The position numbers and the translations under genes were made by a program. Of a DNA stretch of 36,522 bases, positions 3,336 to 30,061 are shown piece by piece. Within the stretch, counting starts at the first letter, position 1, and each line of letters starts with the position of its first letter. A model generated the notes under the pieces. That model was not told where the DNA came from and ran no database searches. It was given only the letters and a program-made list of their open reading frames with translations. Source of the stretch: a virus; the UHGV virus genome UHGV-0118448. One strand, written 5' to 3'.

Positions 3336-3526
3336 GGGCGCAATCCTATTAGATTGACTCGATAAAGAAGAGAATGGAGTTAATGCTACAAATGACGCTA
3401 TTGATTTGAAAAATGATCTTCTGTTCATTTAAGACACTCTTTAAGCATGACATTTGGTAGTAATGTAAGAAAAAATTACAATCAACTCCATAGCTATTTA
3501 ATTTTTAAAAGTGATTCACACCTGCA

Positions 3527-5920
3527 TTACCCTGACAACACATCAGACTTAGCACCCTGAGTCAGGGCGTTAATGGCCTTTTGCGCCTGCTGCATGGCTT
3601 TCTCAAATGCTGTTGACCCGCGTGGGGTATTTGCCATTCGGAGCATTGCATTTCTGAATGGTTCGCTCTCATAGGCGCGCGTAAGAAGTCCGTAGCTTAC
3701 TGCTGCGCCAGTTGTCGCCGGGTTCATTGCCGTCCCATACCCAATAATGAACGGGATAGTTTGCTGCCCTGTGGGTGTTGTTACTGCCGCTTTTGCAGCC
3801 TGCTGCGTGGATTGCAGGTAGTTTTTTAATCCTTTCAGATAAGCGGCTTCCTGACCTTTAAATGTGATGCCAGTCTGGTTTTGCAGGATGTTAAGCTGTC
3901 GAAGGAACTGGTCAGGGGAGCCACCTGATTTCTCCATCGCCTTTCCAATGATGCCATTGCGCATTTGCGCCCTGCCAACACGACCAACTGAGTTATACAG
4001 CGTCTTAATTTCCGATTTGTTCTTGCTGAATAGCATGTTGTTGACAACTTCCGGCGTCAGGTCGCCTTTCATGAGAACATTCTTCAGCCTGGTATTCTTT
4101 AGTTTCGCCGCTTCGTCAGCGTAGACGGCATTGGCCTGCTGATATTTACGGAGAGTATCGTTGCCAAGATTCTGACCAATGGCACCATTGATATCGTCGG
4201 TCATTGCCTTGTAAACGCGCTGAATGGCAGCATCGGAACGGTTTGGTAACACTGGTCGCTCCCCCTTCACGTCCATTCTGAACTGGCTGCGCAGATCGCT
4301 TAATTGCTTCAAATCCAGATTTACCGGACCATCAGGACCAGCATTGCGAACAAGCTCATCACGATAGGACTGAAGTTTTGAAATAGTCTCGTTATCAGCA
4401 ACCTTACCAAGCTTCTGCAGGTTAGATATTTCTGTATCAATCTGCTGAATTGCTCTTGCAGGCTGAATGTTTATTCCTGCCATAGCATTCTGAACCTGCT
4501 CAAGACGGTTCCCTGCAGCACGACGAATTCCTGATGTTTTCGCTTTAAGGCTGTCAATAACAACAGCTGGATCATACTCACCGAATTTATCAGCAAATCT
4601 CTGCACCAACTGGCTTCTCGCTTCCTGTTGCGTTGCTCTCATTCCGCTTGTGCCAGCCAGGGGGATATTTTCCGCTGTCGTCTGCGCCATTTTTCCGACG
4701 CGGGAAGTGGGTTGTAACAGGTCTGTGGTGTGCAGAGGAACTCCTTCACGTTCTGCAAATCTGATAGCCTGTTGCGCTTCTGGTGCTATCGAACCACGAA
4801 CACCACGATAAGCAGCACCTAATCCACGTCCGGCAGCGTTAATAGCACCGCCAGCCAGCACACCAACGCCTAAATCGGTGGCGAGTGCTTCCGCATCATC
4901 TTTCGCACTGTTTGCAGCAAGTGATCCAACTGCGTTTTCTGCGAGAAGGCGAGTTGCCCCCTGAGCAATTCGACCAGCAAGTGTTGGTGCCTGTGCTGCC
5001 GCTCTCTCAACGCCAGCAGGAGTGAGGTAAGGCAATGCTTCAGCAAATACCCTTCCCTCTGTCGTTTGTGGAGTCAGCGCGCCTTGCTGAAGGCCAAAGT
5101 CCTGCTCTAATCCCTGCGTTGTTACTCGTGGTGCTGGTTGATATGTACCATCGCCAATGCCGAGTTTACCGCCAGCCCAAGCCGCCGCGCTTGTTACAGC
5201 ATCAGTGAGTTCAGCAGGTATGTTCGCTACGTTGATTCCTGCCTGTAGTAAGCCGCGCCCGGTTTCAGCAAGTCCATTACCAAGGTCAGACATTATTCCG
5301 CCTTGCTGCTGAACAGGTTTCGGTGCGACAGAACTTACGGGTTGAGGTGGCTGCTGACTGGCTGCCTGCTGCTCAATCTGAGCAAATGGATTATTTGGGT
5401 CTGACTGCACGCCTGATGCCGATACTTGTTCGGATGACTGTGCTTCCAGTTGTGCAAACGGGTTGTTAGGGTCTTGCTGAGGATGTACCTTTGCAGAGGT
5501 GGCGCGCTGTTCGACTGTTGAGTCTGTCACCGGGTCACCCGCCCATTGAGCAAAGCGATCATCAACGTAACCGCGGCCTTCAGGTCCTGGCGTATATTCA
5601 CCACGCTTTGCCTTCATAACGTTGCCGGGACCGTCGTGATAAGCCTGAAGAGCGTCACGCCAGTTACCAAACTGCTGGTACATCTTTGCCAGATAGCGCG
5701 CGCCAGCGTCAGCCTGATATTCGGGGTTTTGCATTTGCTCATCGGTATAACCCATATCACGCCATGTCCCAGGCATGACCTGAGTCAATCCTACAGCCCC
5801 GGCGGAGCTTACTGCGGCAGGGTTGTAAGAAGACTCCTTGGCACCCAGTGCAGTCATCAACCCTTCTGGCACACCGTAACGTGCGCCAGCCTGCTCTAAC
5901 AAATCACGGTAATTAGCCAT
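3527..5920 (-). CDS. Ejection (internal virion) protein, gp16 position, with N-terminal lytic transglycosylase-like domain
   Basis: Last gene of the 7-20-16 ejection-protein block by synteny; N-terminus contains GLTQVMPGTW and surrounding SLT-like motifs; 797 aa, Ala/Gln-rich low-complexity middle. Confidence 0.75.
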   Translation of the reverse strand: MANYRDLLEQAGARYGVPEGLMTALGAKESSYNPAAVSSAGAVGLTQVMPGTWRDMGYTDEQMQNPEYQADAGARYLAKMYQQFGNWRDALQAYHDGPGNVMKAKRGEYTPGPEGRGYVDDRFAQWAGDPVTDSTVEQRATSAKVHPQQDPNNPFAQLEAQSSEQVSASGVQSDPNNPFAQIEQQAASQQPPQPVSSVAPKPVQQQGGIMSDLGNGLAETGRGLLQAGINVANIPAELTDAVTSAAAWAGGKLGIGDGTYQPAPRVTTQGLEQDFGLQQGALTPQTTEGRVFAEALPYLTPAGVERAAAQAPTLAGRIAQGATRLLAENAVGSLAANSAKDDAEALATDLGVGVLAGGAINAAGRGLGAAYRGVRGSIAPEAQQAIRFAEREGVPLHTTDLLQPTSRVGKMAQTTAENIPLAGTSGMRATQQEARSQLVQRFADKFGEYDPAVVIDSLKAKTSGIRRAAGNRLEQVQNAMAGINIQPARAIQQIDTEISNLQKLGKVADNETISKLQSYRDELVRNAGPDGPVNLDLKQLSDLRSQFRMDVKGERPVLPNRSDAAIQRVYKAMTDDINGAIGQNLGNDTLRKYQQANAVYADEAAKLKNTRLKNVLMKGDLTPEVVNNMLFSKNKSEIKTLYNSVGRVGRAQMRNGIIGKAMEKSGGSPDQFLRQLNILQNQTGITFKGQEAAYLKGLKNYLQSTQQAAKAAVTTPTGQQTIPFIIGYGTAMNPATTGAAVSYGLLTRAYESEPFRNAMLRMANTPRGSTAFEKAMQQAQKAINALTQGAKSDVLSG

Positions 5921-13527: not shown

Positions 13528-15693
13528 TTATTGAGGTGTCTCGGCTACTCCGCCGGAGGGGATTTGAACTTGACGCATAAGATTCGCGAAATCCATGCGT
13601 TGTGAATGAGTCTGGTCTGCATCTTTAAGAAGCAGCTCAGCGTTAGCACGAGCATCTTTGCTGCGCTGTTGCTGGAATTGACCTACGAGCTTGAGGTACT
13701 CACGCAGTTCTGCCTGCTTGTCGAGGTCCATATTGTTGAAGATTTCTGCAATCTTCGCGGCGTTGAGTTGGTTTTGGGCTTCAACCTTGGCAGCTTCAAC
13801 CTGAATCTGCGCCTGTTGGTTCTCTGCCTTGAGCAATTCAGCCTGACCTTGCAGAAGGATACCCTGCGCCTGAATTTGCTCTGCTGATGGCTGCTGCGGC
13901 TGTTGTTGTGCCTGCTGTACCATCTCCATCTCTTCAGGTGTTTCTGGTTTCTTCAGCCCCATCATCACCAGTTGCTTGTTCGCGTACTCTCGCATCATCT
14001 CAACGCCTTTACCGTCAAGCAGCGTGAAGTATTGCAGCATCAGCATCTGGAACTCTGGAGTACCTTGCGGAACCTTGGTGAGTAACTCCTGAATCTCTGC
14101 GCGGTTCTGTTCCTTCATGCTCTGGAAGGATGGCCCAACGTCTGTATAGCACTCATAGCGACCGCGAATGTCGTTGAGTGTGACCACATTACCGGACTGG
14201 TAATCTACAACTTGCGCGTAGAGTTGAACGTCTTTCTCGCTACCATCTTCAAGTGTCAGCGTTACATGACGAGGAACGTCATAAATATCGTTGACCATTG
14301 AGGCATAAATCTCGCCATCACGTCGCATTGCGGTAGCCAGGTTATCCTGAAACACGTATGTCTCAAGGTCTGCCCGCATGTTCAGTTGATTGACGGTATC
14401 GAAAGCGACCTGAGAGTTTGCCGCCTGCGCATCCACGCCAAGACTAGCCACCTCTTTCACTGCGTTGGTGGCAGCCTCAAGCATGTAAGCGTTGGCCTGC
14501 GGTACTTCAGGGTTTTCCATGTAGGAGATTGGACCAATCGGCAGGTCGTTACCGTTTTCATCGGTCCTGTTCTGCAGATAGTACGGATAGTCATCATTTC
14601 CACCGTACATGTATTCGTAGCCTTCGATTTGCTCAGGGAAGAAGGTCGGTTTCTTCTTCGGTGAACGAGCAACAATATCGGCGTTGAACGACATGATCAT
14701 GTTACGAAGGCGTTGACCGTCTTTCGTCAGCCTTACCACTCCCTCGTAGCACTCCTTGTCACCAGCGAATGACCATTCTCCATACACTGGAACGATTGGG
14801 ATATGCTCTCCGGCTATCTTTTCTCGGTCTTTCAGTATCTGCGTGCAGGTGATGATCGACTTATACACACGACGACGCTTCACCTTGCGCTCTGCTACCT
14901 TAATGAATCCACGATTAGCCAGGTCGTCGATAACGTCTTTAATATCCTGCTGGTAATAGCTGACTGGCTCACCTGTCAACGGGTCGCGGTAGATGAAGAC
15001 TTTCTCCTTCTTCTCTTCTACCTCGTAATACTCAGCGACGTAGACGACATCATTCGATACCCACGGAAACAGCCATGTGTCGTTCGGATTCTGGAAAGAT
15101 GGCAAGGTGTCCGGATCAATACCGTAATCCTCTGCGAACTCTTTCCAGCCATTGCGTGACAAAGCGTTAATCACCGTGCAGTGCTTAGCGTCGCTCTTAT
15201 CCATCTGCTTGCTGTTGGCGTCCCATATGACGTGTGAGCAGGCCTCATGGATTGGCAGGCGTCTGATTACCTGATTGTTGCTTGTTGGGTCGTTGTCTTC
15301 GTACTGGGTGACCAGACGCCATGCACCAACGCCGGACTCTATCTGCTCACGAACGCCAACGTTAACGGCAATCTTTGCCGTGTTATGGCGCATATCAGTA
15401 CGATACATTCCCATCAACACATCGGCAGCATCAGGATTAGCGCCGTCTTTGGGTCGGAAGAGAACGTCGATAGGGTTCCGGCGCATCTCTGCGACCAGTT
15501 TCCTGACCACCGGGCGAACAACATCGAATTGTCCGCGATATTGCAGGGTAGTGTAGTTTGATAGCCAGTCATCCCATTGCGACACTCGGCTAAAATACAG
15601 GTCATTTGTCGCCTCGGTTCTGGCTTCATCGCTCGCCATCCAGTCCGCGTCAAACTTACACAGAATGGAAATGAGTCTGTTTTCGTCGGCCAT
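13528..15693 (-). CDS. Portal protein (P22 gp1-like)
   Basis: 721 aa; conserved P22 portal blocks ([29 protein letters not shown]..., ...FNNMDLDKQ...). Confidence 0.95.
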
Positions 15694-25133: not shown

Positions 25134-26570
25134 TCAGAATCCTCCTTTCTTCTTGGACTGCGGTTCCTCGCGTTCACGGCGGCGCATTTCAGCAGACTGT
25201 TGGTCTGTGTCATAAATAGCGCCATTTGCCTGAATGCAATACACCGTGCCGGTATTGCCATGACGATTGAGGCGAAGGATTAGTTCGGTTTCACCAGGTG
25301 GAACACTGTCATCAAAAGCACCTTCACGATGGATCCCCACCCAATAATCACAATCCTGTTCAATCTGCCCTGTATCTCGTGAGTCACTTGGTAATGGGCG
25401 TTTATTGGTTCGGCTTTCCAGTGCGCGGTTAAGCTGTGTCAGAAGCACAACAACGCAATCAAGCTCTTTGGCAAGGTTCTTCAGTCCTTTGGTGATCATG
25501 CCGTAAGCAAGGTCGTTGCGATCGGCCTTCTCAGCAGTCATTAGTGTCAGGTAATCGACCAGAATCATGCCAACGCATCCTTTTTCTCGTTTGATTCGAC
25601 GGCTTTCGCTGACGATTTGAGCCAGAGATAATCCCGGCGTGTCGTCGATGTAAAGCAGGTCGATTTCACTCAAGCGATTGGCTGTTTCGATCGCCCTGTT
25701 GAAGTCACCATCGTAATCACCCTGATAGCCGTCATCGGCGTCATTTGTCGCCGGAAGGTAAAAAATATTCGGGTTAACACCAGACTTCTGCCCTACCAGT
25801 TTTTCCAGTATCTGATCACCGGGCATTTCAAGGCTGAACATCAGAGCGGGCTTTTTCTCATGCACTGCGCAGTTGATTGCCATCTGGCTGTATAGCGTCG
25901 TTTTCCCCATCTTAGGGCGAGCGCCAATGACAAACAGAGAGCCTTTCACCAGACCTTTCGGTGACAGCATCCTGTCCAGCGATGGGATCCCTGTGCTCAT
26001 TCCTCGTTGTTCGCCTGACGGGTCAAATCGCTTCTCAAGGTCGCTAACCCAGTCTTCCATGACCTCACCAAATGAGCGAAGGCCGCGACGCGATCCGGTT
26101 TTTGCATGGTCTGTCAGTTGCGTGAAAATCGACTGAATAGCTTCGTACTTCTGTGTTGCAGTCATTCCGTTGCGGGAATAGAGCAATTCCGTCGCTTCAG
26201 TCATGCGGTTGATGGCGTAGCGTTCCATTGCGGTTTCGCGAACCTGCATTGCATAAGCAACGATGTTTGCTGCGCTTGGCGTGTTCTTTGCGATCTCAGC
26301 GATATAAGCAAAACCGCCAACAGACGCCGTTAACGATTTACGCTCCAGTTCATCGAAAAGCGTCAGGCCATCTACTGGCTTTTGCTCACGGTGCATTCTG
26401 GTTATTTCTTCGAAAATGATTTTGTGTGGTCGGCTGTAAAATGAATCAGGCTTCAGCATCGCCAGAACTTTCTGGACGCGCTCACTGCTGTCATCATCCA
26501 GAAGCAATCCACCAATCACCGCCTGCTCTGCCTCGATGCTATGGGGCGGCGCATAAAAATTATCGGTCAT
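25134..26570 (-). CDS. Replicative DNA helicase (DnaB-like, P22 gene 12 type)
   Basis: PPHSIEAEQAVIGGLLLD N-terminal DnaB motif, Walker A GARPKMGKT; probable start at MTDNFYA. Confidence 0.9.
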   Translation of the reverse strand: MTDNFYAPPHSIEAEQAVIGGLLLDDDSSERVQKVLAMLKPDSFYSRPHKIIFEEITRMHREQKPVDGLTLFDELERKSLTASVGGFAYIAEIAKNTPSAANIVAYAMQVRETAMERYAINRMTEATELLYSRNGMTATQKYEAIQSIFTQLTDHAKTGSRRGLRSFGEVMEDWVSDLEKRFDPSGEQRGMSTGIPSLDRMLSPKGLVKGSLFVIGARPKMGKTTLYSQMAINCAVHEKKPALMFSLEMPGDQILEKLVGQKSGVNPNIFYLPATNDADDGYQGDYDGDFNRAIETANRLSEIDLLYIDDTPGLSLAQIVSESRRIKREKGCVGMILVDYLTLMTAEKADRNDLAYGMITKGLKNLAKELDCVVVLLTQLNRALESRTNKRPLPSDSRDTGQIEQDCDYWVGIHREGAFDDSVPPGETELILRLNRHGNTGTVYCIQANGAIYDTDQQSAEMRRREREEPQSKKKGGF

Positions 26571-27387
26571 CGTGTTCACCCTCACGAACTTTCAGGTAGG
26601 TATTATCGTTAAGCAGGAAATCAAATCCCTTTTTGTGCCAGACGGTTCCGCGTTGATGGTTTGGGCGCTCTTCGAACATCCATCGGCAATTTTCGCCTAC
26701 GTAGCTCAAATAATTTCTCCAGTCCTGCATCGTGAACCCATGCCCGTCAAGCTGGCGGGTTATCACTCCGGCTTTGCGCCAGAACGTTCGGATCTGGTTT
26801 TTACGCTTGTCATTCAGTGCGCGGATTTTTGGCGCTTCAGGAAGGATTTCGTGGTAAGCATCGACAACATCCTGACAGCTAACGGAAGGTTTTTTCTTGT
26901 CAGACTTTTTGTCTGCTGTGGCACTCTCTAATACGTCAGTATTAGAGATATTATTTATATTATTGTTTATGGACAACCGTTGGACAGCCGTTGGACAATC
27001 TCCGCTGAGAGCCGCGCCATTACTGGTGTTTGCGTTGGACAACCGTTGGACAACCGTTGGACAATTTTTTGCCTGAAAATCGTCATATTTAACGATTGTA
27101 AACAGGCTAAATTTCTTCCCCATCGAGCAAATATTAAGCATCCCTTTCGACTCAAAAGTCCGTAATAAGCTCCGAACTTTGTTGTCGGGGATGAATGTTT
27201 CTCTGACCAGCGACGGGCGTCCAGTTATCATCTGACCGCGATCAACAGTTATCGGACCGATATCCGTATTGACGACAGTAGATTCGTGATTAGCCTTGAG
27301 GATTAAGTGAAGCCAAAGATGTACTGCCTGAGAGTCCTTATAGAGCCTGCTGTCCATAAACTGGCGGTGTATAGAGACATACCCCAT
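26560..27387 (-). CDS. Replication initiation protein (O-like) containing the ori iterons
   Basis: Start at MGYVSIHRQ with AGGAGG Shine-Dalgarno; coding sequence carries direct repeats (CPTVVQRLS / CPTAVQRLS in protein) followed by an AT-rich stretch. Confidence 0.8.
   Translation of the reverse strand: MGYVSIHRQFMDSRLYKDSQAVHLWLHLILKANHESTVVNTDIGPITVDRGQMITGRPSLVRETFIPDNKVRSLLRTFESKGMLNICSMGKKFSLFTIVKYDDFQAKNCPTVVQRLSNANTSNGAALSGDCPTAVQRLSINNNINNISNTDVLESATADKKSDKKKPSVSCQDVVDAYHEILPEAPKIRALNDKRKNQIRTFWRKAGVITRQLDGHGFTMQDWRNYLSYVGENCRWMFEERPNHQRGTVWHKKGFDFLLNDNTYLKVREGEHDDR
26974..27110. repeat. Origin of replication: about six CGTTGGACAA iterons in two clusters plus AT-rich region
   Basis: ggacaaccgttggacagccgttggacaatc ... 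gcgttggacaaccgttggacaaccgttggacaatttttt then AT-rich tract, inside the O-like gene as in lambda ori. Confidence 0.75.
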
Positions 27388-27436
27388 ACTGGATGCCTCC
27401 TGATGTTGTACAGGGTTATGCCTGTAATCAGCTAAC

Positions 27437-27598
27437 TTAACGACGCCCATGTTTCACTCCTGCTTTGGCTAGTCTGTAAACACCAACAAGGCGCTCTGCG
27501 AACGCCCTGTTATTTGCTGCGGCTACCACTAATCCCTCAGGTGAATCAGGGTGTCGAATCTCTTCTTTTTCCTGGTATTTCTTACGACGTTTTGTCAT
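27437..27598 (-). CDS. Hypothetical small basic protein (53 aa) between cII and O-like gene
   Basis: Hand translation MTKRRKKYQEKEEIRHPDSPEGLVVAAANNRAFAERLVGVYRLAKAGVKHGRR; AGGAG Shine-Dalgarno 5 nt upstream. Confidence 0.3.
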   Translation of the reverse strand: MTKRRKKYQEKEEIRHPDSPEGLVVAAANNRAFAERLVGVYRLAKAGVKHGRR

Positions 27599-27633: not shown

Positions 27634-27915
27634 TCAGGCCTCGAAGAATTCGCCGTTCTTCGGGGCTTTTTCTTTTGTCAGGTAATCGGCAAGTCGCTTA
27701 GTCAATTCAGCCATTTCATCGTCTTCGATTCCGTATTCCAGAACAGCCAGCATCATGCTTACCTGCGAGAAGAAACCATTCTTCCATCGGCTTACCTGGT
27801 ATTCAGGAACCCCCATCGCGCGAGCGAATGTCTTCTGCCCCATAAGTGCCAGTTTGTTCAGCAAGGCTGACTCGATGCGAGCCGCTTTCTTGCTTTTAGT
27901 TGCAATAGTACCCAT
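27634..27915 (-). CDS. cII: CII-like transcriptional activator
   Basis: ARIESALLNKLALMG...VSRWK...MLAVLEYGIEDDEMAEL parallels lambda CII. Confidence 0.85.
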   Translation of the reverse strand: MGTIATKSKKAARIESALLNKLALMGQKTFARAMGVPEYQVSRWKNGFFSQVSMMLAVLEYGIEDDEMAELTKRLADYLTKEKAPKNGEFFEA

Positions 27916-27991
27916 AGATAATTTCCTTAATGATTAGATAGAGTTGGCTTCGCAAAGAAACGCAAAACCATAGAGATTTGTTTCTGGTAAT

Positions 27992-28023
27992 GCCCTTTTT
28001 CAGGGCGGGGATGTGTAAGAGCG
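27992..28023 (-). promoter_or_regulatory. nutR (boxA CGCTCTTA, boxB GCCCTGAAAAAGGGC)
   Basis: Minus strand reads cgctcttacacatccccgccctgaaaaagggc between cro and cII. Confidence 0.8.
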
Positions 28024-28031
28024 TTAATAAC

Positions 28032-28262
28032 TTAAGCGGCCATTAATTCAGGCCAGATGCTTTCCCAATCAACCGGATGAAGGTCTTTGCGAGTTACTTC
28101 ACCATTGCTGAACTTCTCAATCAGAACACAAAGTGCTGCGCCCAATTCATGATTACGGCTAAGTGCTTTCCTCAAATAGCCGATAGAAGTTCCGCACTTG
28201 GTGGCAAATTCTCTCTGCTCTTCCAGTGAAAGGGAGTTCAGATACAAGCGGAGTTCTTCCAT
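28032..28262 (-). CDS. cro: Cro-like repressor (non-lambda HTH type)
   Basis: 76 aa, divergent from cI across the operator region; AGGAG Shine-Dalgarno; HTH-like QREFATKCGTSIGYLRKAL. Confidence 0.75.
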   Translation of the reverse strand: MEELRLYLNSLSLEEQREFATKCGTSIGYLRKALSRNHELGAALCVLIEKFSNGEVTRKDLHPVDWESIWPELMAA

Positions 28263-28294
28263 TTGCTATCTCCTTCCCGTTGTTGAATAAGGTG

Positions 28295-28364
28295 AGTTTA
28301 CCTGTAGGTAAAAGGCAAATCAATACCCATAGGTTATTTACCGACAGGTAATCAAAGATAGAAT
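28295..28364. promoter_or_regulatory. Right operator/promoter region: operators TTACCTGTAGGTAA (28298-28311) and TTACCGACAGGTAA (28338-28351); candidate pR (-10 at 28295-28300, -35 at 28318-28323, minus strand) and pRM (-10 TAGAAT 28359-28364, leaderless cI)
   Basis: Two 14-bp palindromes of form TTACC-N4-GGTAA between divergent cro and cI; promoter hexamers placed by spacing. Confidence 0.65.
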
Positions 28365-28370
28365 TAAATC

Positions 28371-29057
28371 ATGGATAAATACGAACAAAGACGACTAAGG
28401 CTGATAGAGATAAGAGACCGATTCTGTAATGGAAAGGCCTCAGAGTTGGCTCGTCGAATAGAAAGGGAACCATCATACGTTTCCAGAATGCTGTATCCGG
28501 AAGGAAAAAGCGGAAAAAAACGCATTGCTGACGATATGATGGAACTAATTGAAAAATCTTTTAATCTCCCACGCGGATGGATGGACATGCTTGTAGATGG
28601 TAAAGCTGGAGCTACAGACCATCTTGAGTTTGCGGGTAACGTTCGTGCGGGTTTTGTTCCGGTAATTGGTGAAGCCGTTTTGGGAGTTGATGGCTCAGTG
28701 GATATGATTGAATTCAGATCCGGTTGGTTAAGCATCTACAGCGGCGATAAAGATGCTTACGGTCTGAAGGTTAAGGGTGACAGCATGTGGCCAAGGATTC
28801 AGTCAGGAGAATATGTTGTTATTGAACCAAATACGCCAGTACATCCAGGTGATGAAGTCTTTGTAAGGACCAAAGACGGTCACAACATGATAAAGATCAT
28901 GAACAAAACAAGAGACGGTGATTATCAGTTTAGTAGCATAAACAGTGATCACCGCCCAATCACTCTTCCTGTTGAAGAAGTTGATAAAATGCATTTTGTT
29001 TCAGCTATTGTGAAACACACCAGGTACGTAGACCAGGACGATCTGCCAAAAGTTTGA
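28371..29057 (+). CDS. cI: CI repressor with C-terminal S24 (LexA-like) autocleavage domain
   Basis: N-terminal HTH region; C-terminal GDSMWP Ser nucleophile motif and downstream Lys; no Shine-Dalgarno (leaderless, as lambda cI). Confidence 0.9.
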   Translation: MDKYEQRRLRLIEIRDRFCNGKASELARRIEREPSYVSRMLYPEGKSGKKRIADDMMELIEKSFNLPRGWMDMLVDGKAGATDHLEFAGNVRAGFVPVIGEAVLGVDGSVDMIEFRSGWLSIYSGDKDAYGLKVKGDSMWPRIQSGEYVVIEPNTPVHPGDEVFVRTKDGHNMIKIMNKTRDGDYQFSSINSDHRPITLPVEEVDKMHFVSAIVKHTRYVDQDDLPKV

Positions 29058-29071
29058 GGATAAAGCAGCAA

Positions 29072-29368
29072 ATGTTTATACCCGGCATAGTAGTCGCTGT
29101 TGTAATCATCTGCTTCATATGGGCAAAGTTATCTCCTGTAAGCTCTAAGCATACAGCTGAACTCATGAGGAAGAAGCATCTTATACATGAGGCAGAATCG
29201 ATAATTAAAAAGTTCAAAGGCATGTCATACGACGACATGTCATCAGAGCAGATTGCTATGTATAAATGCGCCATTGAGCGCCTTGACTACTTAAACGGAC
29301 TCAAACCCAAACACACCCCAGTAGAATCAAAATTGCCGCAATGGCCAGGCAATCCAAATAGCTTCTGA
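29072..29368 (+). CDS. Small membrane-anchored protein co-transcribed with cI (rexAB-slot accessory gene)
   Basis: MFIPGIVVAVVIICFIWAKL N-terminal TM helix then soluble 75-aa domain; immediately follows cI stop; followed by strong terminator. Confidence 0.6.
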   Translation: MFIPGIVVAVVIICFIWAKLSPVSSKHTAELMRKKHLIHEAESIIKKFKGMSYDDMSSEQIAMYKCAIERLDYLNGLKPKHTPVESKLPQWPGNPNSF

Positions 29369-29379
29369 CATCTCCTTTC

Positions 29380-29404
29380 AGCCCGCAAAGCGGGCTTTTT
29401 TATA
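29380..29404 (+). terminator. Intrinsic terminator ending the cI operon
   Basis: agcccgc-aaa-gcgggct followed by ttttttat. Confidence 0.85.
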
Positions 29405-29464
29405 TCAATCCAAAAAATTAATTACCTGAAAATTCAAGCAGGTAAACTCTCACATCAATTTTAT

Positions 29465-29506
29465 TTACCTACAGGTATAGACAGCGGTTTTACCTGTAGG
29501 TATATT
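29465..29506 (+). promoter_or_regulatory. Left operator/promoter: operators TTACCTACAGGTAT (29465-29478) and TTACCTGTAGGTAT (29490-29503); candidate pL -35 TAGACA (29478-29483), -10 TATATT (29501-29506)
   Basis: Same TTACC-N4-GGTA family as the right operators, overlapping promoter hexamers with 17-bp spacing. Confidence 0.65.
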
Positions 29507-29546
29507 TTAAGCCATCAGCAGGACGCACTAACCACCATGAAGGTGA

Positions 29547-29577
29547 TGCTCTTAAAAATTAAGCCCTGAAGAAGGGC
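29547..29577 (+). promoter_or_regulatory. nutL (boxA TGCTCTTA, boxB GCCCTGAAGAAGGGC)
   Basis: gatgctcttaaaaattaagccctgaagaagggc upstream of N; boxB identical to lambda nutL as recalled. Confidence 0.85.
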
Positions 29578-29734
29578 AGCATTCAAAGCAGAAGGCTTTG
29601 GTGTGTGTGATACGAAACGAAGCATTGGCCGGAAGTGCGAATCCGGATTAGCTGCCAATGTGCCATTGCGGGGTGTTTTCGTTCAGGACTACGACTCCCA
29701 CACACAACCAAAGCTAACTGACAGGAGAATCCAG

Positions 29735-30061
29735 ATGGATGCACAAACACGCCGCCGCGAACGTCGCGCAGAGAAACAGGCTCAATGGAAAGCAGCAAAT
29801 CCCCTGTTGGTTGGGGTAAGCGCAAAACCAGTTAACCGCCCTATTCTCTCGCTGAATCGCAAACCGAAATCACGAGTAGAAAGCGCACTGAATCCGATAG
29901 ACCTTACAGTGCTGGCTGAATACCACGAACAGATTGAAAGCAACCTGCAACGTATTGAACGCAAGAATCAGCGCACATGGTACAGCAAGCCACGTAGTGA
30001 AATGGGTGTGACTTGTGTTGGTCGCCAGAAAATGAAATTAGGCAGCAAACCACTTATTTGA
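29735..30061 (+). CDS. N: Antiterminator N (lambda-type, 107 aa from internal Met)
   Basis: MDAQTRRRERRAEKQAQWKAANPLLVGVSAKPVNRPILSLNRKPKSRVESALNPIDLTVLAEYH... essentially lambda N; Arg-rich motif. Confidence 0.9.
   Translation: MDAQTRRRERRAEKQAQWKAANPLLVGVSAKPVNRPILSLNRKPKSRVESALNPIDLTVLAEYHEQIESNLQRIERKNQRTWYSKPRSEMGVTCVGRQKMKLGSKPLI

Follow-up and report, generated by a model that had tools for sequence, protein, structure and literature searches.

The early region of the lambdoid prophage in UHGV virus genome UHGV-0118448 is inverted relative to the usual lambda map, and it raises the question of which immunity specificity is encoded there and how its repressor could govern early transcription from operators unlike those of lambda. 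The whole stretch analysed, 36,522 nucleotides, is referred to here as the window. We conclude that the region at ∼28,041–29,512 is very probably a lambdoid prophage immunity module of the mEp043 immunity type, with a CI/Cro bistable switch. The cI and cro genes are divergent and enclose a short region in which three operators lie over the promoters pR and pRM, a second operator set lies over pL upstream of N (OL2 at 29465, OL1 at 29490; N from 29735), and the repressor has a LexA-like S24 self-cleavage domain, cleavage itself being a prediction. This is an ordinary lambdoid mosaic, already present in GenBank within mEp043. What is new in our description is the operator set of the right (OR) and left (OL) operator regions including OR2, the breadth and rigidity of the family to which the module belongs, and a conserved split operator upstream of OL. 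The original prediction for this DNA, of a non-lambda specificity joined to lambda-type N functions, is supported; absent from it were the tripartite OR, the existence of a GenBank-sequenced phage of this type and the identity of the joint with the classical immunity boundary.

Four 14-bp palindromes had been proposed as operators, and they are present on either side of the divergent cI and cro genes as described: OR1 (28298–28311, TTACCTGTAGGTAA), which overlaps the −10 hexamer of pR; OR3 (28338–28351, TTACCGACAGGTAA), which overlaps the −35 hexamer and spacer of pRM; OL2 (29465–29478, TTACCTACAGGTAT), which abuts the −35 hexamer of pL; and OL1 (29490–29503, TTACCTGTAGGTAT), which overlaps its −10 hexamer. 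OR1 and OR3 are conserved in relatives. The motif TTACC-N4-GGTA gives six strand matches in the window, corresponding to these four sites, all at the immunity region, with a chance expectation of 0.15 strand matches and none of 100 shuffles reaching six. In 500 Markov simulations, TTACC...GGTAA pairs with a gap of 0–30 bp occurred on average 0.4 times and at most three times per window. A lone TTACC-N5-GGTAA at 14189–14203, distant from the immunity region, is probably due to chance.

While OR1 and OR3 had been identified correctly, a degenerate middle site had been overlooked. OR2 (28323–28336, ATACCCATAGGTTA) has two mismatches to the consensus and abuts the −35 hexamer of pR. From its centre it is 25 bp to that of OR1, the distance that also separates OL1 from OL2, 15 bp to that of OR3 and 41.5 bp to the downstream ATG of cI. 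Because OR2 lies between OR1 and OR3, OR is tripartite rather than bipartite. Lambda CI bound at OR2 activates pRM from the equivalent position (about −42).

The operators overlap plausible promoter hexamers, as had been suggested for pR, pRM and pL. A promoter scan returned pL (29478–29506, plus strand; TAGACA-17-TATATT, 10 of 12 consensus positions) and pRM (28337–28364, plus strand; TTTACC-16-TAGAAT, 9 of 12). Aligning the lambda sequence and the start annotated in 434 places the transcription start of pL at 29514, on the A of ATCAGCAGG. On the minus strand, pR (28295–28323) was read by eye from the sequence as a −35 hexamer TTGATT (28318–28323), a 17-bp spacer and a −10 hexamer TAAACT (28295–28300), matching the consensus at 8 of 12 positions. 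The TTG of this −35 hexamer is the CAA directly before the TACC of OR2 and is kept in 49–52 of 58 related loci; the placement of pR is supported by this conservation across the family.

In order to assess how widely this arrangement occurs, one genome per species (GTDB) was scanned for relatives of the repressor N-terminal domain, which yielded 60 loci in gamma-, beta- and a few alpha-proteobacteria; further loci were found by protein similarity. One group of homologues comprises S24-type repressors in Enterobacter, Cronobacter, Pantoea, Yersinia and others, and a second comprises proteins of ∼137 aa whose C-terminal part (∼60 aa) is DicA-like; in phage CharmingMan the same N-terminal domain is joined to a different S24 domain. 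Thus the same DNA-binding domain occurs with at least three C-terminal domains (loci L005–L077 and L337), with operators and spacing unchanged. The recognition helix and following loop, SYVSRMLYPEGKxGKKRI, are nearly invariant among the homologues, and in 63 of 73 related loci the repressor is paired with a divergently oriented Cro homologue. In nearly all loci the upstream layout consists of OR1 (TTACC-N4-GGTAA), OR2 (cAATACC-N4-GGnn) 25 bp further on and OR3 (aTTTACC-N4-GGTAa) another 15 bp on, measured start to start; almost all of 58 related loci carry the degenerate OR2 in this place, and an OL pair ∼25 bp apart was seen in most of the related loci examined. In the SfV, SfIV, cdtI and Stx2c phages the N-terminal domain is 39% identical, the helix is changed and the palindromes read TGTACC-N5-GGTACA; in SfV itself (U82619, our locus L336) these palindromes lie at OR and OL, at 1404–1472 and 2200–2250. 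The best evidence at hand that the palindromes are repressor operators is this co-variation of helix and operator, taken with their unchanging register over three promoters.

It is very improbable that the TTACC-N4-GGTAA palindromes are instead Cro-only sites, host-protein sites or promoter-derived repeats: the half-sites do resemble promoter hexamers (TTTACC, GGTAAACT), but in about 60 species the palindromes accompany the pair of cI N-terminal domain and Cro and keep their places over pR, pRM and pL, a changed recognition helix is matched by changed operators, and footprints of the homologous PaaR2/YdaS pair cover the corresponding region (PMC8630535). The N-terminal domain, Cro and the operators form a module common to prophages of gamma-, beta- and some alpha-proteobacteria, one that is missed by Pfam and whose repressor is named only 'S24 family peptidase' by genome pipelines. 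At least three exchanges of the C-terminal domain have left the recognition helix, half-sites, operator spacing and probable leaderless design nearly as they were. The family offers a convenient natural series for asking how heteroimmunity arises while the core half-site stays constant, and how sensing domains are swapped on a fixed DNA-binding platform.

The specificity of the module is not that of lambda, 434 or 933W. Using blastn, no nucleotide similarity to lambda or 434 was found between 28041 and 29503, and the proposal of a non-lambda specificity is borne out by operators that differ from those annotated in lambda and 434 and from the 15-bp site of 933W. A 933W-like specificity, hinted at by the mEp043 annotation, was considered and rejected, as the 933W site has 15 bp and another consensus (PMC3317979). 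By sequence comparison, cI, cro and the operators are near-identical to those of mEp043 (JQ182734 / NC_019706 / PV340537). Over 27900–29610 the two sequences share 98.7% nucleotide identity, a likeness that spans cro, OR, cI, an accessory open reading frame (ORF), a terminator, the split element described below, OL/pL and nutL. Four of six sites, namely OR1, OR2, OL1 and the split element, show no difference, and a single base within the central 4 bp distinguishes OR3, and likewise OL2, from its mEp043 counterpart. In the mEp043 records the genes cI, cro, cII and N are annotated along with a putative PL, but operators are not. Outside the module, the segment between nutL and N (29607–29701 of the window) is a lambda- and 434-like stretch of 93 bp here, compared with an unrelated 204 bp in mEp043, and the replication genes of mEp043 differ from those of the window. 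The block at 28263–29520 is present in 52 of 5,426 complete Escherichia coli genomes, and E. coli NZ_CP148334 matches the immunity block at 100% with different flanks. Both in mEp043 and in NZ_CP148334 the block is paired with other replication modules.

The boundaries of the module were mapped with blastn and manual alignment. The lambda-like sequence (94% identical) extends from 29513, the base immediately ahead of the pL start, as far as 30036; with 434 the likeness (97% identity) sets in at 29504, inside the pL −10 hexamer. The left mosaic joint is thus at 29504–29513. The original prediction of a joint near the pL transcription start holds, and the position given there, about 29511, is corrected by the alignment to 29513 for lambda and 29504 for 434. 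At the right edge, ∼28040, in the last cro codons, similarity to Sf101 and 434 ends and the lambda-type nutR comes next. The immunity-specific block therefore extends over ∼28041–29512, with the same boundaries as those between lambda and 434, and the joint with lambda-type sequence is the textbook boundary of an immunity region, also seen between these two phages. With nutR on one side and the pL transcript, carrying nutL and N, starting one base from the other, the module can be exchanged in one piece without separating N from the nut sites that fit it.

The first ∼15 transcribed bases of pL (CCATCAGCAGGACGC) are common to prophages whose downstream nutL and N differ. This patch is found exactly at the module joint, at 29510–29530 in the window and at ∼4100–4120, ∼4155–4172 and ∼3340–3357 in the related loci L071, L073 and L030, respectively. 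A short conserved patch at the pL start could serve as a recombination linker.

The divergent cro–cI control region is 108 bp long, and its geometry suggests that cI is translated from a leaderless mRNA, as had been proposed. The −10 hexamer of pRM, TAGAAT, ends 6 bp ahead of the cI ATG, so that the predicted pRM start coincides with or lies beside the A of this ATG (28371), and no Shine–Dalgarno sequence was found ahead of the cI ATG in the window. Among 58 distinct relatives, 33 have a −10-like hexamer ending 6–7 bp before the ATG and only 7 have Shine–Dalgarno-like 4-mers upstream of it; the distance from the start of OR3 to the ATG is 33–34 bp in 47 of 63 related loci. The mRNA of PaaR2 is leaderless, as determined by rapid amplification of cDNA 5' ends (5' RACE) and N-terminal sequencing (PMC8630535), which is an experimental precedent within the wider family and not proof for the present phage. 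Taken together, the hexamer position, the fixed distance, the scarcity of Shine–Dalgarno-like 4-mers and the PaaR2 precedent support a leaderless cI transcript from pRM.

From these sequences, their conservation and spacing, the homologies and the breakpoints we infer how the switch would work, from binding and the sequence in which sites are filled to activation by cI at OR2, translation of a leaderless mRNA and cleavage in the SOS response. A cI dimer would bind the 14-bp operators TTACC-YRYR-GGTAA. In a lysogen, dimers on OR1 and OL1, and cooperatively on OR2 and OL2, would shut pR and pL, and cI at OR2 (−41.5) would stimulate pRM, whose transcript is expected to start at the cI ATG; at high cI concentration OR3 would be filled and pRM repressed. 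RecA-stimulated self-cleavage, predicted from Ala88-Gly89, Ser138 and Lys175, would inactivate cI, whereupon Cro, with its YdaS-family helix-turn-helix, would bind the same sites as cI. N made from pL would act on the lambda-type nutL and nutR, and the repressor, Cro and operators could be exchanged as a unit with N antitermination unaffected.

Several observations weigh against this picture. The consensus match of pR lies under the threshold of the promoter scan, and the scan overall gave no enrichment over shuffles. The gap between OR2 and OR3 is 1 bp (centres 15 bp apart); simultaneous occupancy of the two sites and lambda-like cooperativity are not to be assumed. In addition, literature searches with the operator strings and with mEp043 returned no paper describing these sites.

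Upstream of OL, a pair of half-sites, TTACCTG and CAGGTAA, had been noted as unexplained. The pair is real, although its spacing had been given as 9 bp with an end at 29444; the spacing is 10 bp and the element extends from 29422 to 29445 (TTACCTG-N10-CAGGTAA, or TTACC-N14-GGTAA). It consists of two complete 7-nt operator halves (TTACC-Y-R) whose separation exceeds that in a normal operator by one helical turn. In Enterobacter, Cronobacter and Pantoea prophages (cI 85, 83 and 71% identical, respectively), the split element lies exactly 43 bp upstream of OL2 while the flanks have diverged, and the same distance was found in further genome loci identified via the protein. Among viral contigs, 47 distinct OL regions were retrieved with a pattern that excluded the split element, and 31 of the 33 distinct upstream segments from these have it 43 bp from OL2. 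Judged by this conservation, the split element is not a chance feature. In 40 diverse copies, the invariant or near-invariant columns are those of an upstream A-tract, TTACCT, the spacer TCA and, in the right arm, one T and one A; several relatives without the right arm still keep the A-tract and the TCA. The A-tract (AAAAAATTAA, 29411–29420, plus strand) is located at about −103 to −94 of pL.

The upstream control region of lambda pL and OL holds OL3, an integration host factor (IHF) site and an UP element. For the split element we tentatively rank first that it is an auxiliary low-affinity repressor site in the corresponding control region of pL and OL. Two points sit badly with such a role: the element was missing from phage CharmingMan and from Rac-like loci, and its geometry could not be bound by a rigid dimer that fits N4 sites. 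A more elaborate proposal, which we regard as unlikely though worth stating, is that the split operator would be bound only in a higher-order complex, by domains from different dimers or with a bend introduced by a host factor, and would act as an OL3-equivalent anchor coupling OL to OR and pRM. For Rep of Salmonella phage SPC32H, DNA-binding domains contributed by different dimers have reportedly been seen; we know of no such auxiliary-operator geometry described for lambdoid phages. The element is conserved across many enterobacterial prophages and is a defined and testable one.

A possible but doubtful alternative is that the split element acts as RNA, forming a plus-strand hairpin that would serve as a back-up terminator, and in some relatives the sole one, keeping cI-operon transcripts out of pL, nutL and N. 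The predicted hairpin has a folding energy of −7 kcal/mol (z = −3.1). Across the 40 diverse sequences 87.5% of cells in the arms are paired, covariation is seen at the innermost pair (GC 23, UA 6, CG 2) and a U-G at pair 21–34 in ten sequences fits the plus strand only. Moreover, ACTTTTT follows the stem in most relatives, and in locus L071 no other hairpin occurs between the upstream ORF and OL. However, the stem is AU-rich (7 bp with three GC pairs) with a 10-nt loop, the copy in the window is without a U-tract, the hairpin is not called by the terminator scan and the split element already has a strong terminator 25 bp ahead of it. A plain hairpin also leaves the exact operator half-sites in the arms and the invariant TCA of the loop unexplained, and in three variants TTACC recurs as a direct rather than an inverted repeat. 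Symmetric changes are equally expected of a dyad protein site, so that covariation does not separate the two. A hairpin on the minus strand or a small-RNA terminator was rejected, given that the frequent CGGGTAA variant makes a C-A mismatch on that strand.

It is also conceivable, if rather unlikely, that the split element and A-tract form an IHF bend site with a distal UP element for pL, or else that they amount to a second, weak promoter of the leftward operon (ATTACC-16-TAAACT); in either case the arms would be incidental or would let the repressor interfere. The deepest-conserved columns are the A-tract, the CT of the left arm, the TCA of the spacer and T37, which persist where the right arm is lost. 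The spacer resembles WATCAA-N4-TTR at 7–8 of 9 positions; the window copy, ATTCAAGCAGGTA, agrees with the IHF consensus WATCAANNNNTTR at 7 of 9. A similar A-tract, CAAAAAATAAATT, is found about as far from pL in lambda, and PMC3708714, citing Giladi 1998, reports action of IHF and of an UP element close to OL on lambda pL and, via looping, on pRM. GGTAAACT is also the −10 hexamer of pR here. Nonetheless, allowing at most one mismatch, the IHF consensus has no match within 29422–29445, and the single match in 29360–29520, at 29411–29423 on the minus strand, falls in the A-tract; the candidate secondary −35 hexamer matches at just three of six positions; and the arms match the full operator half TTACCYR far above chance. 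Some role other than an auxiliary repressor site, a hairpin or terminator, or an IHF, UP or promoter function is improbable. That the element is a LexA (SOS) box is extremely unlikely, and this reading was rejected: the window copy contains CTG-N10-CAG, but only 10 of 20 positions of the LexA consensus TACTG(TA)5CAGTA are matched, and relatives carry CTC...GGG, CTT...AAG or CTG...CGG there, with TTACC and GGTAA constant and CTG/CAG not conserved.

The cI gene (28371–29057, plus strand) encodes a repressor of 228 aa with a Pfam Peptidase_S24 match (PF00717, E = 1.4e-17). The protein consists of a helix-turn-helix N-terminal domain (residues 1–72), a disordered linker (76–92) and an S24/LexA-type C-terminal domain, and the residues associated with self-cleavage (Ala88-Gly89, Ser138 and Lys175) are present. 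The N-terminal domain was assigned to PHROG 5736 and found no match among Pfam families. AlphaFold predicts it as a four-helix helix-turn-helix domain (helices 3–18, 23–29, 34–40 and 54–63) with a predicted local distance difference test (pLDDT) score of ∼91, and gives the C-terminal domain the lambda cI/LexA/UmuD fold. The closest fold to the N-terminal domain is that of SPC32H Rep (5d50; template modelling (TM) score 0.81), followed by XRE-family proteins. A sequence search of the PDB with full-length cI produced noise only; relatives were found with a profile of the N-terminal domain, which retrieved 5d50 (E = 1.7e-10) and the N-terminal domain of PaaR2 (7nkv, E = 5.5e-5). The cro gene (28032–28262, minus strand) encodes 76 aa with a YdaS-family helix-turn-helix (PHROG 35); its match to Pfam YdaS_toxin (E = 8e-6) is below the curated cutoff.

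An accessory ORF (29072–29368, plus strand) occupies the rexAB position downstream of cI and encodes 98 aa with an N-terminal transmembrane helix (PHROG 10450, E = 4e-54). It has no match in Pfam or PADLOC, and cI likewise has none in PADLOC. The ORF begins 15 bp past the cI stop codon, which a TTG-started version of the frame (29054) overlaps, and it is not called by PGAP in a genome of identical sequence. It is probably co-transcribed with cI and is a candidate for a prophage-expressed exclusion or conversion gene. The intrinsic terminator of the cI operon (29380–29402, plus strand), called by the terminator scan, has a GC-rich 7-bp stem followed by T6.

The N antitermination module, comprising N and a boxA and boxB at each of the sites nutL and nutR, is of the lambda type. 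The original prediction of nutL and N was confirmed by alignment and by the Pfam N36 match of N (29735–30061, plus strand; E = 1.5e-26). nutL (29547–29577, plus strand) contains boxA TGCTCTTAA (29547–29555) and boxB GCCCTGAAGAAGGGC (29563–29577) in a region 94–97% identical to lambda and 434. nutR (27992–28023, minus strand), identified by alignment with both phages, contains boxA CGCTCTTAC (28015–28023) and boxB GCCCTGAAAAAGGGC (27992–28006). Outside the immunity-specific block, the P22/Sf101-like cII gene (27634–27915, minus strand) matches Pfam Phage_CII (E = 4e-30), and the sequence at 27900–28040 is 96.5% identical to Sf101. A putative CII binding site, TTGC-N6-TTGC, in the −35 region of pRE (27890–27903, plus strand; TTGCTTTTAGTTGC) reads towards cI and is also annotated in the mEp043 record. 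Downstream of cII, the replication module (25134–27598, minus strand) has a Phage_rep_O-like gene and a DnaB-type helicase gene in the style of P22/ES18, rather than lambda O and P, with an ORF of 53 aa (27437–27598) between cII and O. No Rfam family was found anywhere in the window. The outcome for the window is a complete and coherent annotation of a prophage lysis–lysogeny switch.

Compared to known repressors, the N-terminal domain of cI has its best structural and profile match in SPC32H Rep (25% identity), which has another C-terminal domain. In work attributed to Kim et al. 2016, SPC32H Rep is said to be inactivated by an antirepressor and not by RecA-stimulated self-cleavage. The cI proteins of the SfV, SfIV, cdtI and Stx2c phages share the N-terminal family, an S24 C-terminal domain and a divergent cro, and an SfV-type record carries an annotated putative operator region, whereas their recognition helix and operators are different.

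PaaR2 and YdaS of cryptic prophage CP-933P in E. coli O157:H7 control a divergent region of 97 bp (Jurenas et al. 2021, PMC8630535), on which they give overlapping footprints and exert lambda-like regulation, both activation and repression, of PRM, PR and PL (PMC8630535). PaaR2 (PDB 7nkv, 8c7k) resembles the present system in its remotely homologous N-terminal domain, its YdaS-family Cro and the ∼100-bp divergent region. It differs in its operator consensus, GTTTAGTAA, in having no S24 domain and in heading a toxin–antitoxin operon; moreover, the window encodes a true CII, for which CP-933P has YdaT instead. The combination of operator consensus and domain architecture that defines a PaaR2-type repressor was not found in the window.

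With lambda and 434, the system shares divergent cI and cro genes, a tripartite OR in which OR2 lies at about −42 of pRM, operators over pR, pRM and pL, an S24 domain of the self-cleaving type, lambda-type nutL, nutR and N, and the same module boundaries. In those two phages, cI mRNA made from pRM is leaderless. In contrast, its operators are 14-bp TTACC-N4-GGTAA sequences, compared with the 17-bp operators of lambda and ACAA-N6-TTGT in 434, and the OR centres are spaced by 25 and 15 bp rather than by the 24 and 23 bp of lambda. OL comprises two canonical sites and a split site 43 bp upstream instead of the three adjacent sites of lambda and 434, and the N-terminal domain of cI differs in being without a Pfam match. 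The tight spacing of OR2 and OR3 and the split site at OL are the two places where this system may behave unlike lambda.

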